A stretch of DNA of 64,000 nucleotides from Raja brachyura (taxonomy: Eukaryota), in NCBI GenBank assembly GCA_963514005.1, contig OY740811.1, forward strand, positions 29,202,001-29,266,000, given 5' to 3'. Both the position numbers and the translations under genes were made by a program. Below are positions 3,091 to 52,099 of the stretch, piece after piece (the first letter of the stretch is position 1; every line of letters begins with the position of its first letter). Under the pieces are notes generated by a model, which ran no database searches, was not told the DNA's origin, and saw only the letters and a list, made by a program, of their open reading frames with translations.

Positions 3091-3347
3091 CAGGAGTACT
3101 ATAATTAGACTACTGGAAAAACTGGACAGCAACTATGAACGACTCTATGCTCTATTTATTCCATGTGAGAAAACAACGTTTATTTGCCTTGCTATGATTC
3201 ACACGTTGCCAAGACTCCCCCCAGACTGGAGCAGATGGTTAGGTCTACGGATATATGCCCCAAGTTGAGCAAGTGAAATGATTTTACAAAGCGCTTACAT
3301 ACCTTTTAACCCTGATCATTCTCATGGATTTGTTTCTTGCCCAACAG

Positions 3348-3461
3348 ACCAATGAAAAAGGTCAGGTGGTCACCACAACAACACTACTGAAGCAGATGGA
3401 AGAACTGATTGAGGAACCAGGTTTAACCTGTTGCATTTGCCGTGAAGGTTATAAATTTCAG
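3348..3461 (+). CDS. UBR4: UBR4 exon (TNEKGQVV...EPGLTCCICREGYKFQ, start of hemiRING zinc finger)
   Basis: caacag acceptor, gtaagt donor, 114 nt, in frame with neighbours. Confidence 0.96.
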
Positions 3462-3562
3462 GTAAGTCAGCTTTGCCACAGAGAAATGCATATCTGCAGT
3501 ATAGTGTCAGTGCGGTGCCCCCGTTTTGCAATCACAATCGTGGTCCTTTATGTCAATTATAG

Positions 3563-3705
3563 CCAACCAAGGTGTTGGGGATTTACACCTTCACAAAGCG
3601 TGTTGCAATTGAAGAGTTTGAGAACAAACCACGGAAACAACAAGGATACAGTACTGTCTCACATTTTAATATTGTCCACTATGATTGTCATCTCGCTGCA
3701 GTCAG
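3563..3705 (+). CDS. UBR4: UBR4 exon ([14 protein letters not shown]...[15 protein letters not shown])
   Basis: tatag acceptor, gtaaga donor, 143 nt. Confidence 0.96.
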
Positions 3706-4406
3706 GTAAGAGCGACACTTTTTCACTCTTCAAACTAAGAAAGGTTATGATGTACATTTTGTAAATCTTCCTCTACTGAGAAGTGAGATGGCAACTGGAG
3801 AGAGATATGCACCACCAAAAAGATGCAAACAACGAAAGATTGGGATCTCAATTCGGAGTTTGTGGCTGGTCTGGCAATATTGGAAGAAAAATCCATTAAA
3901 ATATTCAAGGAGAGGTTAATTTTTCCCAAGCTCCAGAGAAAGGAACATGGTAGAATAAGCAGCGTGCTGTAAAAATCTTAATCTACTATTTCGTGTTCCG
4001 GTACCTAGATCTGCTGAGCACAGCAAATGATGTGGTTTTATATTTAATTGGGAAATAAATTACTATGTTACATAGGTGGAATGGAATCTGGCCTGGAAAC
4101 CTTTTGCAATTGGGTGGCTCCTTTAAAGACATTGTTTATTTGTTCCCTGGGAAAATAACTCAAAATTAATCGCGTGCAAACTCCTGAAACCAGTTTTCGG
4201 AGGACTAGTAATTAAACCACTGATTCCACTTTTTTAAATGAATTTTGTACAATTATCACAAAGTGTAATGGGTACATTGTATTTCTAATATTTACTAGAG
4301 ATAAGTTATTGCATTCACTGGTGGGATTTTCTATCTCAGTAAAAATGATTTAAGTAATTTATGATGAATATTGATCTGGTAGATTTTTGTGAATTAATTC
4401 CCACAG

Positions 4407-4532
4407 GTTGGCACGAGGGCGTGAGGAGTGGGAGAGTGCTGCGTTACAGAATGCAAACACCAAGTGTAATGGATTGCTGCCTGTGTGGGGTCCGCATGTG
4501 CCAGAATCGGCATTTGCTACGTGTTTGGCAAG
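4407..4532 (+). CDS. UBR4: UBR4 exon ([42 protein letters not shown])
   Basis: ccacag acceptor, gtaaga donor, 126 nt. Confidence 0.96.
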
Positions 4533-4619
4533 GTAAGACTATGAGGGTCTTCAATGTGAATTTTTTCTGGAATTAGATGGGAGTGTGATTAAAATTAGGA
4601 ATCAAAGGAAAGAGTATGC

Positions 4620-4768
4620 CATGTTGGGAAATGGTGATAGCGGAGTCAGGGCATATGGGGAGAAGGCAGGAACGGGGTACAGATTGTGGATGATCAACCA
4701 TGATCACATTGAATGGCGGTGCTGGCTCGAAGGGCAGAATGGCCTACTCCTGCACCTATTGTCTATTG
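4620..4768 (+). mobile_element. CR1/HER1 LINE 3' end
   Basis: atgatcacattgaatggcggtgctggctcgaaggg...ctactcctgcacctat tail shared with other CR1 copies in the window. Confidence 0.8.
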
Positions 4769-4900
4769 TGATGAAGCTTATAAAAATATGCAGGAATTCA
4801 TAAAAGCTTGAAAGACGAATAACATATGCAGTTCTATTTAGAACAAACGCAAATTATTTGTTTTCAAATAATATGCAGTAATATACACAAAAAATAGCTT

Positions 4901-5035
4901 NNNNNNNNNNNNNNNNNNNNNNNNNNNNNNNNNNNNNNNNNNNNNNNNNNNNNNNNNNNNNNNNNNNNNNNNNNNNNNNNNNNNNNNNNNNNNNNNNNNN
5001 NNNNNNNNNNNNNNNNNNNNNNNNNNNNNNNNNNN
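4901..5035. other. Assembly gap (N run)
   Basis: 135 N. Confidence 0.99.
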
Positions 5036-5145
5036 TCACAGCAAAGTGGGATATTCTGCAAGAAACATTATCTTGATGAAGACTTGAAGCTCATTAAAAA
5101 AGTCCAGTGACTTGCTTCTGTGCTACAACCACCTGAAATTAATTA

Positions 5146-5345
5146 ATAGACTATAGGTGCAGGAGTAGGCCATTCGGCCCTTTGAACCAGCACCGCCATT
5201 CAATGTGATCATGGCTGATCATCCCCGTTCCTGCCTTCTCCCCATATCCCCTGACTGCTATTTTTAAGAGCCCTATCTAGCTCTCTCTTGAAAGCATCCA
5301 GAGAACCTGCCTCCGCCACCTTCTGAGGCAGAGAATTCCACAGTT
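5146..5345 (-). mobile_element. CR1/HER1 LINE 3' end
   Basis: Reverse complement of the same CR1 tail. Confidence 0.8.
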
Positions 5346-5419
5346 AAGGTGTTTGACGTGGCAAATACATTTCTGTATGGTGTACTAAATTTTAATGACC
5401 TTGTTTCTGATTGTTCCAG

Positions 5420-5614
5420 GCACAACACATACTTACAAGAGTGCACAGGTCAGCGTGAACCCACCTACCAGCTTAATGTTCATGATATTAAACTCCTCTT
5501 CCTGCGTTTTGCAATGGAACAGTCATTTAGTGTTGATACTGGTGGAGGGGGCAGAGAGAGCAACATCCATCTTATCCCTTACATAATGCACACAGTTCTC
5601 TACGTTCTTAATAC
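5420..5614 (+). CDS. UBR4: UBR4 exon (HNTYLQECTGQREPTYQLNVHD...HTVLYVLNT)
   Basis: ttccag acceptor, gtaagt donor, 195 nt. Confidence 0.96.
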
Positions 5615-5691
5615 GTAAGTACAGCAGAGCCTCCATTCAATTACCACAATTTTGTAATGATGTATATTGACATTGTACAATTAAATCACAG

Positions 5692-5916
5692 GACACGGGC
5701 CACATCCCGAGAGGAAAAGAATCTACAAAGTTTTTTGGAACAGCCAAAGGAGAAATGGGTTGAAAGTGCTTACGAGGTGGATGGAGTGCACTATTTCACA
5801 GTCTTGGCACTGCATGTTTTTCCACCTGAGAAATGGAAAACTATTCGTGTTGATTTTCTCAAACGTCTCCTCGTCACTGCCCAAGCAAGGAAAGCATCAC
5901 CAAGTGGCTCCACCAA
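5692..5916 (+). CDS. UBR4: UBR4 exon (TRATSREEKNLQSFLEQPKEKWVES...)
   Basis: cacag acceptor after a 77-nt intron, gtaaga donor, 225 nt. Confidence 0.95.
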
Positions 5917-6581
5917 GTAAGAGAACCAATATAGTCACTAAAGTTTGTGCTTTTATGATGAACAATTATTTTATCGCAGATCTCATCAAAGTGGAAAAGT
6001 GCGATTTGAGAATGCATTTCAATCCTGTGCGCGGACAAGGAAAAAGTCTTGATCCTTTGGAGCTTCGTCACCATATCCCGATCCCTTTAATTTCTAGCAT
6101 TGCACTGAATTGTGTTTAAATATCCCCAGAGCATATATTTTTGCTCAGTGGATTAATTTAAATATTCACCACCATCAAAAGAATTCCTGATAAATGATTA
6201 CTTTTCATTGATTTTCGCTGTCCACTTTAGTATACTTGGAAATAATGTACTTTTATTTGATCTATACTTTCACAGGTCCAGGTAATGTCGAACCAGTGAT
6301 TTATAAAGATTTTGAAATCAAAAAATGACTGGCTAGAAATGTTAAATTAAAAAAATGTTGGAAGCACTTAGCAGGTCAGGTAGTATCTGCGGAAAGAAAA
6401 ACGATATTTTAGGGCTAAGGCTGTTTTAACGCCTCACATAATTTTTCTAAGTAGATTAAATTGTTTCCATTGATTAGGGGATACTTCATATTGTCGTTCA
6501 CTCTACTCTTCCCTCTGTAGCACAAGATTTTCTTGGAACGTTGCAAATGATCTTGTATTAAGTAAATATCCTGATTTTCAG

Positions 6582-22389: not shown

Positions 22390-23517
<1,128 letters not shown>

Positions 23518-26500
23518 TGAGTGACCGCTTTCAATGCGGAGTTTGGCGCAATGTCGGGCAATAGGGAGCAGCCGGCAGATTGGTGGATGATCCGCCTGCT
23601 GTGTTTTGCTGATACGGGACTAAAACACTCATTTCCCGTTATTAAACCGGCTCTATCTAACATGAACACCATAGAAATAGATTTCTATAGGAATGATTAA
23701 TTGAAAAGAGATGCCTGGAGATTTGCAGGAAATAAATTAGAATGATCAAGTATTATTACACGAAAGAGAAAGGATATTCAATGAGATCATACCTGACCTA
23801 ACTCCACAAACCAACCTCTTCTTCCATATCCTTTAGCATGTTAACAATCTAATAATCCCAAATACACATTTTGCAAATGTTTAGCATAAATTGCCACATA
23901 CAGAAACTAATTCCGATTTTTTATAACCTTTTACATATTGAATTAATTTATAACTTCACTAACAAAAGGATCTTGATTTTTAGACAACTCATTGAGGTTG
24001 TCTTGAGTTAAGTGTAATTTGATTGAATATCTTAAACTTCAATCAAATCATGAAAGTATTTTCCTGCAAACTACCTTTCAAAGGCAATGAATGAGTCATT
24101 CATTAGGTGTGGTACCCTGAATTGCTCACATAACTATAAGAGTATTTGTTTTATTGTAATAGTTGCAACATTTAGTTAGAATTCAAATGGAAATATTTTG
24201 TATTTGGCAGAAGGTAATTGCAGGAATTTGGGGGTATGGGGATTAAAGATCAAAATTAGAGTTTCTGCCTTTACAGGGAGTATCCCCTTTTAAAGTTGCT
24301 AAATAAATTCAGTTTGAGAACAATTGTAGCTTCGTGAGCAATAAGAGAACTAAAAAAAATGTATTTTTGATATTGGGGTCATTGAGTCATTTATAGGTTT
24401 ACAATATGATCAAAAACTATGATGGAAGTTTCTTGAGTGCAAAGGAGGGCTGTCACATTTTAAATAAGATGTTGCTAGGTTCTAAGAAATTAATTTATTA
24501 ATTGAGATTTCCATAAAACGTGCAATATGTGTATGAAGGTCCTCATTTTATCCAGGAACAATGCAAAGTTGTCTGCTGTTAAGTGTCCAAAACAGTAGGA
24601 CAAACCACATCATGACGTGCATGCTAATGTGAAACTTGAGCTGGGTTTGTCTGCAATATGTGAGGTTGAGAGCCAACATTGATGGGCTTTGGGGTTGGTT
24701 CTTGATTCTTTCTCTGTCAGTAATACAACCAGCTTAAAAATCGGGAAAGCTGATTTACACTAATTTCACGATCAATATCTTCACTTCTTCAAGGGTGATT
24801 TACATGTAAATCCTTTAAAATGAAGTCTAGATTTTCTAATTTAAGATTGTTCACTGTTCTGTCAGCAGGCCAATCTGTATAGAAATTGCTATGTGTCATG
24901 GTCTGAGTTTGGAGACTTTTGAGATGGTTTGAGATGGTATCAAAGAACAGTTTGTTACTGGCTTCAGCTCCACAATGAATAGCCGCATAAATGTGGGGAA
25001 ATTATGGTTAAAATATGCAGCGTTTTATTGTAGTGTTACTAAATGATGTTATGAGAATGATTTGAGTCTCAAAATTACATCAGCTTTTTAAAGGAATAAT
25101 TTGAAGTTAATAATGTTATCCTTTTAAATGATGTAATTTAAGATTGACTGAAGGAGCTGGAAGTTAGTTGTAGAATATAAAACACAAAATTGTAATTTCC
25201 GCAAATTAAATGGAAAATGGTTCTGCTTTCAGCAGCCCCTGAATATTTTTGTAGTAAATTATGAATTGTTATTCTTAGAAGGAGCTATTCAAGCTGTTTT
25301 AATATCAAGGTCTTTCGTTAACAATGTATATACAAAGTGAGTGCACACAATGCAGAGATAAATCAATATGCAGTCTGATAGCTTCCTATTTTCCCTTGCA
25401 GTCCAAATGCAGAAAATTCATGCCAGGTGTTTCTCATTTTGATGAATCTCTACAGTTGCTCTGCTTTCTGTGTGTTAGTAAAGCATCACAGCATAGCACG
25501 CAGTCTGGAGGCTTCAGTAAGATCGTTGGATTTTAAATTCTTTCTCACTATTGTAATGATCCCTTTGATGCATACTTTGCAGGCCACACCAAGAATTAAA
25601 TACTTTCAGGCTGCCTTGAATACTTCTGTAAATGCCAACAAGTGGATTAAAGTAAAATGTTGAATGTCATTTTTGGGTTGGATACTGTACTGAAGGGATA
25701 ATTATAGAGGTACTGACTGCATTTGCAAATTATGCCAAGTATATCTTGATTAAAGCAAATTAGGTGAAAGAGAATATGAAAGTGTTCAGCTGCAATATAT
25801 TGATATCTACTTATAAAGCGCAGGGTGAAAAAATTAGGGGTGAGTCTAAATGATGACATCTTACCTCCGATGGATATTTGAAGTGTTGGCAGGCAGGTTA
25901 CTTCAAATTCAGCCCTTCATGATCTAATTTTGACATCAACATCACTCTTCCATTCGTGCTAAACTCTTTGATTCACTTGTACTTTAAAATGTCTGACCAT
26001 CCTTGACTTTAATACATTCGAGAATAATGTCCCTGAGTTCTTAAACGTAGAGAACATCAAAGATTCACGACTCTCGGAGAAGAAAACATGTCATTAATGG
26101 GTGACCCCTTAGTCTGAAACACTGCCCCTAATTCTTGGCATTTACACTGACGGCAGCATTCTCTCATCATCCATTCATTCAATCCCTTTCAACATTTTAC
26201 ATATTTCAATAAGATCGCCTTTTATCCTCCAATGGAATGGATATTAGCTGAACTTGCCCAATATTTTTTATCACTCAGCAATCAAGCTGGTGAACCATTT
26301 CTGCACCACCCCCAATACAAATGTATCCTTTCTTGGATAAGGAAACTAAAACTGTGCACTACTCCAGGTGCTCTGTCATCAGCGCTTAGAAAGTTGCATC
26401 AAAACGTTTACCATGAAGAGCAATCCACAATAATAAGAAACTTTGCCTTTTCTAAATTCCCCAAAATTATTTTGCCTCCTTTTCCTCTGATGGGTTATGT

Positions 26501-34310: not shown

Positions 34311-34943
34311 TGCAAATGTTGTTGTTGTCTTTTATTGTTAACTGTAGGATATTTAATCTCTTGCTGATTTGACTACTACTGGTTGTATGCAATGATACTT
34401 GCAGCATCGAAAAAGATTATTGCTATAAAGTTAACCAGAAAATTTTAAGTATCTCAAGATAAATGACCCTATGTTGTGCAGTTCTGTTCTATTTCTGCTG
34501 TTTCCCTCCGTAGAATGTTTATTTCGGGTGTTTGGTTGGGGTAGGCAGAGTCCCTATGGAGTCAAATTGATTTCAAAATAATAACCCTTCAAGTTAATAT
34601 TTAAACCTAATCAACCCTTTTGATGAATATCTCAGACCACCTTTGAAAGAAGTGTGTAAATAGCTAGGGGACAATAAAATACATTGTCAATCTGTAGCTA
34701 ATCTCTCAAATTGCAATTATACGTAGAAAGAATTTTATAAAGGAGCCAATCCAATTGGATATACCAAGGAAAAAGTATTAATGTTTATTATTAATAGCTA
34801 ACGTTTATTAGCTATTTGCATCGCAAAATGTTTGTATCCATTGATTATAGATCTGAACTGGAGTCTGTCTCCGGAATAGGAGGTTATTGTTCCAAATAAA
34901 GCAGATCAAGATAAAGATTAATAAATGCAAACATTCTAAACTA

Positions 34944-35228: not shown

Positions 35229-35848
35229 TTTGTGTATTTGTAGTGGTTAGAAGCATTTTTATATAATCATGTGGAACTTGAAACTGTAAAATAGGTTTTT
35301 TCTTAAAAAGATCTTGACCAGTTTCTACAAGCAAGTAGACTCGATAGATAATGTGTTTGGAGGTAGACCAGGGTAATCCTTTGAGAGTTGCCTAGACAGT
35401 CCAGAGAGACCAATGAACTAATGTGTGAAAATTGTTGTTATGTTATAATTATTTTGGGAATACGTAGCATCTTTAATTAACTGACTCGGCCATACCACTT
35501 TGATCCAAAGATCAGGCCTGCCATCATTTTTTTAAAGCATCTGTCAGTTATCTTGTAGCACTGAGTATTACATTTTGTTTTTGGAAGTTGTGATTGAATC
35601 TGTTTGCTGCTCTCCACACAGCAAATTCCAGATCCCCGTTCAATATTTCTCTCAAACTGGTACTATTAAAGCCAGTCATTAATTTTGAACACCTGTGGTG
35701 GTGAATCTGTGAAATATATTGTCACATACTGTCGTGGAGGCCAAGTCAATGGATATGTTTAAGGCGGAGATGGATCGATTCTTGATTATTAAGGGTGTCG
35801 GGGGTTATGGGGAGAAGGCAGGTTGAGAGGGAAAGATAGATCAGCGAT

Positions 35849-35984
35849 CTTCTTCTTTCGTGTGGCGTGCACAGCCTAAAGTTGTAAGACAACTTGTTCT
35901 ATTTGATCTTCCGTTTGTGCATGTTGAGTTGATTGCATTAGTTAAAACAGGGCGGACCACATGAAGGTTGCAATCTTCCACCCC
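35849..35984 (-). mobile_element. Short retroposon with 5' HDV-like ribozyme and (GAA)n tail
   Basis: 11-bp TSD agatcagc(g/c)at (35838-35848, 35985-35995); ends gaaagaagaag on - strand. Confidence 0.8.
35931..35984 (-). ncRNA. Minimal HDV-like self-cleaving ribozyme
   Basis: GGGGTGG(P1) AA GATTGCA(P2) ACC(P3) TTCATGT(L3) GGT(P3') CCGCCCT(P1') GTTTTAA CTAA(J4/2) TGCAATC(P2'). Confidence 0.8.
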
Positions 35985-36559
35985 AGATCAGCCATGATTG
36001 AATGGCGGTGTGGACTTGATGGGCTAAATGGCCTAATTCTGCTCCTATAATTTATTAATTTATGAACCTCCACTAAATCGCCTTTTCCAAGAAGAATAAT
36101 CCCTGCCTCTCTAATCTCGCATACAATAAAATGTTGCATCTTTTGCATCATTCTTGTAAATCTACTCTGCATACACCGTAATCATTGGCACTCTTTCAAA
36201 AGTATATTAGACCTATAATCTCTGGTTTGGAAGAACAAGATTGCCACACAGTAGGCATAATAAAATGAGATTAGATGTATTTTTAGTTCAGAATAAAATT
36301 CAACCCATCGAAGCACACAAAATTCTGAAGAGCCTTAGTTGGTGTCTTGGTGTCTCTCACGCCTACCCTTGCTGTGTTAGATAAAACTCTTGCAGCTAGC
36401 ACGTATGAATCTCCCTATTTGATGTATATCTAGCTCTACCTCAGATGCTATCTCTGTCTCGATTCTCTAACCTCTCAAATGATCTGTACCATTTCTTCAG
36501 CCATACAGTTTATTAACCAGCTTTAATTTTCAATCCCTTACTCACCTGACAGCATTTGG

Positions 36560-51667: not shown

Positions 51668-52099
<432 letters not shown>

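Follow-up and report, generated by a model that had tools for sequence, protein, structure and literature searches.

A short Vingi-derived retroposon of Raja brachyura with a putative P4-less HDV-like ribozyme at its 5′ end

The element and its insertion site

A 136-bp retroposon lies on the minus strand at positions 35849..35984 of a 64,000-nucleotide stretch of the Raja brachyura genome (assembly GCA_963514005.1, contig OY740811.1, positions 29,202,001 to 29,266,000; this whole stretch is called the window). It is a bipartite, non-autonomous derivative of a Vingi-type long interspersed nuclear element (LINE), and its first 54 bases are predicted to fold as a hepatitis delta virus (HDV)-type ribozyme that lacks the P4 helix. 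The insertion interrupts the tail of a common repeat, for which eight empty, uninterrupted sites were present in 580 kb of genome sample (58 evenly spaced 10-kb stretches), and is bounded by an 11-bp target-site duplication with one mismatch. The left copy of this duplication is at 35838..35848 (+) and the right copy, at 35985..35995 (+), stands directly against G1, the first base of the element, at 35984. An earlier examination of these letters, the sequence-only reading, had placed the element on the minus strand with the duplication exactly adjoining G1, and all the features it described were found again at their positions.

The predicted fold spans 35931..35984 (-), with cleavage predicted 5′ of G1, and was identified by a structural descriptor, by covariation and by a weak Rfam match of a sister copy. 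The 5′ strand of P1 (35978..35984) pairs with 35949-35955 and includes a G1.U wobble as well as a U5.G pair, which in the parent LINE is U5-A. After a 2-nt J1/2, the 5′ strand of P2 (35969..35975) forms seven Watson-Crick pairs with 35931-35937. The 3-bp P3 and L3 occupy 35956..35968, with U20, C22 and G25 in L3 and a private C>T change at position 24. Positions 35942..35948 hold G37, which makes the single P1.1 pair with C22, then U38 and a 5-nt remnant in the place of P4, and J4/2 follows at 35938..35941 with the predicted catalytic C (C44) at 35941, all on the minus strand. The commonest letters in the family are UUCACGU for L3 and UUCGA for the P4 remnant; private CpG decay has altered the window copy at element positions 24, 41, 42, 60 and 63.

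Three segments make up the element. The 5′ segment (35913..35984, -) is identical at 64 of 72 positions to the 5′ end of LINE copy L216, while the 3′ segment (35849..35887, -), which contains the last codons, stop codon, 3′ untranslated region (UTR) and (GAA)n tail of the parent, matches LINE copy L237 at 35 of 38. Between them is a junction of about 25 nt (35888..35912, -), which, from the intermediate copy L217:62-196 and predicted folds, apparently arose when a short stretch of 5′ UTR letters was duplicated and the beginning of the tail was added as a fold-back copy, which makes a 7-bp hairpin. The 3′ half (35849-35926, -) is predicted to form a long stem, here and in older copies such as L057, in which the end of the segment derived from the LINE 5′ region pairs with the 3′ UTR; this stem has 11 bp in the older subfamily and is weaker in the younger one.

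The neighbouring genes are on the plus strand. The 3′ exons of a UBR4-type ligase (3282-6119, +) are followed by a gene of the intermediate-filament orphan type, presumably IFFO, whose first exon (22741..23520, +) has a Pfam Filament match and encodes a tandem peptide repeat of about 10 residues; a second Filament match lies at 51668-51790 (+). A weak SNORD58 match at 34615-34671 had suggested RPL17 as host gene, which was rejected as the flanking exons are of the intermediate-filament type. The window copy sits antisense in a downstream intron, between plus-strand exons of this gene, and the ribozyme would therefore be absent from the host pre-mRNA. This copy is unlikely to be a source copy.

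A Vingi-type parent and a large family of copies

A search with the endonuclease family returned 150 matches. The top 30 were rejected as parent, since they belong to another, two-ORF-type family (ORF, open reading frame) without a match to the element. Among 20 lower matches examined was L126, a single-ORF LINE of 3.1 kb that matches the ribozyme core in part, and its protein led to several related families. One of these, family C, begins with the head of the element, continues into an ORF and ends in its tail; families A, B, D and E, as well as two further ones, were considered as parent and rejected. Against family C, nt 1-72 of the element are identical at 64 of 72 positions to the head and nt 98-135 at 35 of 38 to the stop codon and 3′ UTR, the last 39 bases being the final codons, stop and 3′ UTR of the LINE. 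The assignment of the tail also rests on 30 LINE 3′ ends and on translation. In copy L334 the head (from about nt 8), a protein match to residues 19-1019 of the closest intact relative and the tail all lie within 3.09 kb, and L180 likewise carries head, ORF and tail. A LINE sharing both ends with the element, for which the sequence-only reading had proposed to look, is thus present in this genome in decayed form.

Pieces of the parent match the Pfam APE and RT (reverse transcriptase) domains and, weakly, a C-terminal zinc finger, with no RNase H, and its closest intact relatives are APE-RT proteins of about 1000 residues, also without RNase H, many of them on 3.2-kb contigs. Named protein relatives come from an eel, arthropods and Anolis, the Anolis cluster being what we take to be Vingi-1_Acar. 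By size and domains rather than by a tree, the parent fits the definition of Vingi given in PMC13708176, namely about 3 kb with a single ORF that contains APE and RT and no RNase H.

The element therefore has 5′ and 3′ ends that both come from one autonomous LINE, a (GAA)n tail in common with it and no ORF of its own, and is an internally deleted LINE derivative of the class known as short internally deleted elements (SIDEs). The sequence-only reading had called it a SINE-like element (SINE, short interspersed nuclear element). As a high-copy, non-autonomous retroposon it is one, but it is not an independent SINE, being a deletion product of its own Vingi-type parent; the ribozyme fold was therefore inherited and not acquired by a SINE. 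ARAGORN and A/B-box pattern checks of the element were negative and no small-RNA Rfam family matched, in keeping with the earlier statement that no tRNA, 5S or 7SL head is present. The head is instead a LINE 5′ UTR, and the small-RNA-derived head with A and B boxes that marks a classical SINE is missing.

The parent is much rarer than the short element (49 candidates for its 5′ part and 736 for its 3′ part). All parent copies examined were broken, and the family is therefore probably no longer mobile. Many parent copies are 5′-inverted (L196, L204, L206, L209, L210, L212, L213, L217, L235 and L242), with a few hundred bases from the head lying in reverse beside a 3′ piece, the ribozyme placed at their junction and a large part absent, which suggests that the RNA's 5′ end was kept close to the target site. 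Insertions of the short element were also seen inside its own parent LINE (L180:602-737) and inside another Vingi-type family (L182:3596-3733), and the element was therefore active after those LINEs.

The expectation that the element would have further genomic copies was confirmed. Nine copies in the 580-kb sample, all starting at nt 1-3 and none tail-only, scale to about 42,000 copies genome-wide (95% range 19,000-80,000); a genome search gave 4662 first-look candidates, 40 of which were scored. Among 99 distinct copies, 92 align from nt 1. For copies that had not been selected by their 5′ half, alignment from nt 1 was seen in 24 of 27 found with a 3′-half query and in 15 of 18 found incidentally or at random, and a start at nt 1-3 in 26/27 and 18/18, or 44/45 together, as expected if 5′ ends pile up at G1; matches starting beyond nt 90 were left out of this count, as they cannot be told from LINE tails. 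Target duplications flank 91 of the 99 copies compared with 21 of 486 mismatched control pairs, and of these 91, 81 are 9-14 bp long and 75 end within 1 nt of G1. Many loci, duplications and a parent-type tail together mark an element that spread independently through target-primed reverse transcription. T precedes G1 in 44 of the 92 full-length copies, compared with a share of 27% in the genome sample, which is a preference at the target or the junction.

An older subfamily (17 copies, about 4.5% non-CpG divergence) and a younger one (82 copies, 1.3-3.3%) differ in the core at J1/2 position 8, at position 32 (U-A or U.G) and at the free J4/2 position 45, and never at C44, G25 or A47. The element was also found in sequencing runs of several other organisms. 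In contigs of four of these, loose alignment ends cluster at 35984-35985 and at 35848-35851. The common core differences there are limited to the window copy's own CpG changes, the free J4/2 position and G32>A, by which a wobble becomes a Watson-Crick pair. A metagenome scan for outside relatives yielded three distant loci, none with the HDV motif.

The HDV-like fold and its recurrence

A strict HDV descriptor, consisting of a 7-bp P1 starting with G, P2, a 3-bp P3, the L3 pattern and the J4/2 C, matched the 64-kb window solely at 35984-35931 and gave no match in 3.8 Mb of dinucleotide shuffles; a relaxed descriptor gave none in 4.6 Mb of shuffles. P1, P2, P3 and P1.1 thus occur in the HDV order as a nested double pseudoknot, and in both the element and its parent P4 is reduced to 5 nt between J1/4 and the C. 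At gathering level, Rfam matched nothing in the window, the window copy included. For the less decayed sister copy L016, the best of 4227 Rfam families was HDV-F-prausnitzii, over exactly nt 1-54 (16 bits, E 0.66). A match to HDV-like models, for which the sequence-only reading had proposed a search, was thus obtained on a sister copy, below threshold, and not on the window copy. The best scores were 16 bits for this family and 31 bits for family D against thresholds of 35-50, and the models all include P4. Nested folding energies of three window stretches did not stand out from shuffles (z -0.69 to +0.87), a result to be expected of a pseudoknot.

Five Vingi-type families of the same genome (A-E) begin with the HDV motif, with 8-9 bases between P1 and P3 and, after J1/4, 18-45 nt in A, B, D and E compared with 5 nt in family C. 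In a sequence-only alignment of 10 heads from families A-D, both partners vary in 13 of the 18 pairs, among them the lone P1.1 pair, which is C-G in families A, C, D and E and U-A in B. None of 500 shuffles reached 13 pairs and slid controls gave 3; rows of family E were misaligned in the first alignment (A1) and were left out of the pair count. When all BLAST-collected heads of the five families were counted without a pairing filter (13, 7, 25, 3 and 116 copies), family E included, the commonest letters paired at every helix position in all five families. G1, U20, G25 and the C and A of J4/2 are the commonest letters in all five and invariant in alignment A2. Among copies with a letter at the position of the J4/2 C, 112 of 114 in the element family have C, as do 11/11, 6/6, 21/23 and 3/3 in the others. 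Beyond these catalytic letters the five heads share structure and not sequence. Family E matches three HDV-type Rfam models, best CPEB3 at E 0.00012 on a 161-base stretch, all below the gathering score. The pairing proposed in the sequence-only reading, and with it a complete minimal HDV-like fold at the 5′ end, is therefore supported by the descriptor and covariation, P4 being a 5-nt remnant.

Another short family headed by a ribozyme motif, about 160-205 bp long (L073:1824-1993, -; L312-L331), derives from family D, with a short P4 hairpin, a (GAA)n tail and duplications, for which there were 852 first-look candidates.

Proposed mechanism, relatives and significance

Given the ancestry, copy number, ends and pairing observed in this genome, and taking NARTc, the R2 SIDEs, theta and CPEB3 as precedents for transcription, cleavage and protein binding, we consider it likely that the head is a P4-less HDV-like ribozyme which cuts before G1 and frees a uniform 136-base RNA for the reverse transcriptase of the parent. 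A few source copies would be transcribed, either through read-through or from a promoter within or close to the head; the head would then fold, and Mg2+- and C44-dependent self-cleavage before G1 would define the 5′ end. Once cleaved, the compact fold may shield the uncapped RNA. The freed 136-base RNA would be bound by the protein of the parent through its tail, and perhaps also its head, and target-primed reverse transcription from the tail would insert copies at new sites. Most copies, including that in the window, would then have decayed neutrally.

Several observations weigh against this proposal. The pile-up at G1 shows where the template began and not how, a 136-nt RNA is easily copied whole, and many parent copies begin 3-12 nt inside the ribozyme, while none shares sequence upstream of G1. 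The whole strict motif is kept in 56 of 99 copies and in 3 of 18 unbiased ones. The descriptor had picked the 10 alignment rows as intact, which makes their 100% pairing a matter of construction. When 30 nt of flank are included, the 5′ strand of P1 in the window copy is predicted to pair upstream in competition with P1. J1/2 is only 2 nt long in the element, and very short spacers slowed another HDV-like ribozyme (PMC4908430). Among copies, core non-CpG divergence is not consistently below that of the rest of the element, CpG decay at the L3 site is near symmetric (C24T 541, G25A 469, with at least 11 of the latter from one tandem duplication), and the catalytic CpG in the older subfamily shows 14 C>T against 20 G>A (first 100 of 2420 matches, by eye, p 0.39). 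These CpG tests give no clear selection among copies, which is expected if few sources made most copies. In the P4 remnant, by contrast, CpG decay runs 12 vs 38 (p 0.0003); this asymmetry weakly hints at a secondary source that carried a change in the dispensable loop. A dozen copies with an identical variant lie within 160 kb at G000:C1:14796059-14951998, in a tandem segmental duplication that carries the element.

The strongest competing explanation is a head with both functions, as proposed for Pr77 of L1Tc/NARTc. It would act chiefly as an internal RNA polymerase II promoter that starts at G1, and an active ribozyme would play a secondary role, trimming the start. The sequence-only reading had taken the element to be promoterless and to cut itself from read-through RNA. 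The head of L1Tc and NARTc is both promoter and ribozyme (PMC3185411 and PMC4035085), and Ingi and Vingi are sister clades (PMC5786205). Copies of the element are also dispersed, so steady read-through is not guaranteed. A cap can leave an extra G; G precedes G1 in 13 of 92 copies, where the genome sample has 23% G, giving no cap-type excess, a weak argument. The five heads have only structure and catalytic letters in common, which also speaks against a promoter as their main role. We regard this explanation as unlikely.

That the fold is instead catalytically dead or very slow after the loss of P4, and has been retained solely to bind the Vingi protein or to block nucleases, seems improbable to us, although P4 is a 5-nt remnant here against 18-45 nt in the other families. 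A role for a dead fold is plausible, as fold stability mattered for R2 templates (PMC11331408), and the many rearranged parent copies with the head at an inversion junction are consistent with a 5′ end held near the target. However, subfamily changes fall on free positions (8 and 45) or keep pairing (32), sparing C44, G25 and A47, and natural ribozymes without P4 do cleave (PMC10879173). A chance pairing pattern in an ordinary short repeat could account for Rfam scores below gathering thresholds and unremarkable folding z-scores, but it is hardly credible in view of the empty shuffles and is already contradicted by the recurrence of the fold, with compensatory changes, at the 5′ end of five families.

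The element belongs to a class already described, that of SIDEs, NARTc, RIME, R2 SIDEs and Vingi-1_EE derivatives. NARTc and RIME, derived from L1Tc and ingi, are likewise non-coding, built from both ends of an Ingi-group LINE and headed by an HDV-like fold at +1 with a one-pair P1.1, and the NARTc head self-cleaves in vitro (PMC3185411, PMC4035085). They differ in their protist hosts and in a 77-nt head with P4 and shown promoter activity, as opposed to a 54-nt head without P4, a vertebrate host and tens of thousands of copies. The R2 and R2/R1 SIDEs of Drosophila also join a ribozyme to a LINE 3′ end; their RNA is released from a co-transcript and mobilised in trans, and R2 SIDE heads self-cleave in vitro (PMC3414825). 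These are rDNA-specific, with few copies, a length of 529 bp for R2Dwi_SIDE and a parent with a restriction-like endonuclease, whereas the present element is dispersed, with an APE-type parent and a (GAA)n tail. Internally deleted derivatives of hedgehog Vingi-1_EE, and other bipartite non-autonomous LINEs, share the parent clade and the bipartite build (PMC5786205). The minimal HDV-like ribozymes (drz-Mtgn, theta) resemble the head in having no P4, a short J1/2, C first in J4/2 and a cut before G1, and are active; PMC10879173 places nearly 99% of minimal HDV-like ribozymes in gut phages next to tRNAs and reports none from the human, mouse and protist genomes searched. In the full-text literature we found no description of this element family or of a Vingi ribozyme, although Repbase, Dfam and patents lay outside the search and an earlier description may exist. 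A P4-less ribozyme head in a high-copy vertebrate element was not found in print, the ribozyme-headed design being known from trypanosomes and flies.

The L3 letters of the mammalian CPEB3 ribozyme are those of the commonest form of the element (U20/C22/G25 numbering), and it likewise has a one-pair C-G P1.1 with U-U and a G25.U20 wobble (PMC4836649). It differs in its P1, P2 and P3 letters and in being single-copy, intronic, sense to its host, equipped with a P4 hairpin and conserved for about 159 million years (PMC8233481). When the 5′ end of gharial Vingi-2 (supplement of PMC5786205) is compared by eye with the Rfam RF00622 CPEB3 consensus, 45 of the 47 positions shown outside P4 are identical. 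The body of alligator SINE2-1_AMi, which is derived from that 5′ end, also closely matches the CPEB3 ribozyme. PMC5786205 makes no mention of CPEB3, and PMC8233481, on the evolution of this ribozyme, does not contain 'retrotranspos', 'Vingi' or 'origin'. The gharial match supports a reading of Vingi heads as working ribozymes, and this comparison of two printed sequences suggests that the mammalian CPEB3 ribozyme descends from a Vingi head. We lean, by a little, towards all of this holding jointly: the Vingi clade would start with active HDV-like ribozymes, the element would be a 54-base P4-less ribozyme plus a tail, with thousands of intact self-cleaving motifs in the genome, and CPEB3 would be a domesticated Vingi head.

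If the proposal is correct, this would be the smallest ribozyme-headed retroposon of which we have found a description. It would also provide the first example from a vertebrate genome of an HDV-like ribozyme without P4, present in tens of thousands of copies. About one copy in six perhaps keeps the whole motif, and sense-strand intronic insertions could cut host pre-mRNAs, so that an orientation bias is predicted. Strand skew of the flanks, a proxy for such a bias, was nil in 99 copies (TA -0.001 +/- 0.006, GC -0.018 +/- 0.010), with low power. The CPEB3 lead would give that ribozyme a concrete, checkable origin. The element would also define the minimal RNA needed in trans by a Vingi protein, which bears on the Vingi-based gene-insertion tools in development (PMC13708176), and would answer, for Vingi, the question left open in PMC5786205 of why bipartite elements arise in only some LINE clades.
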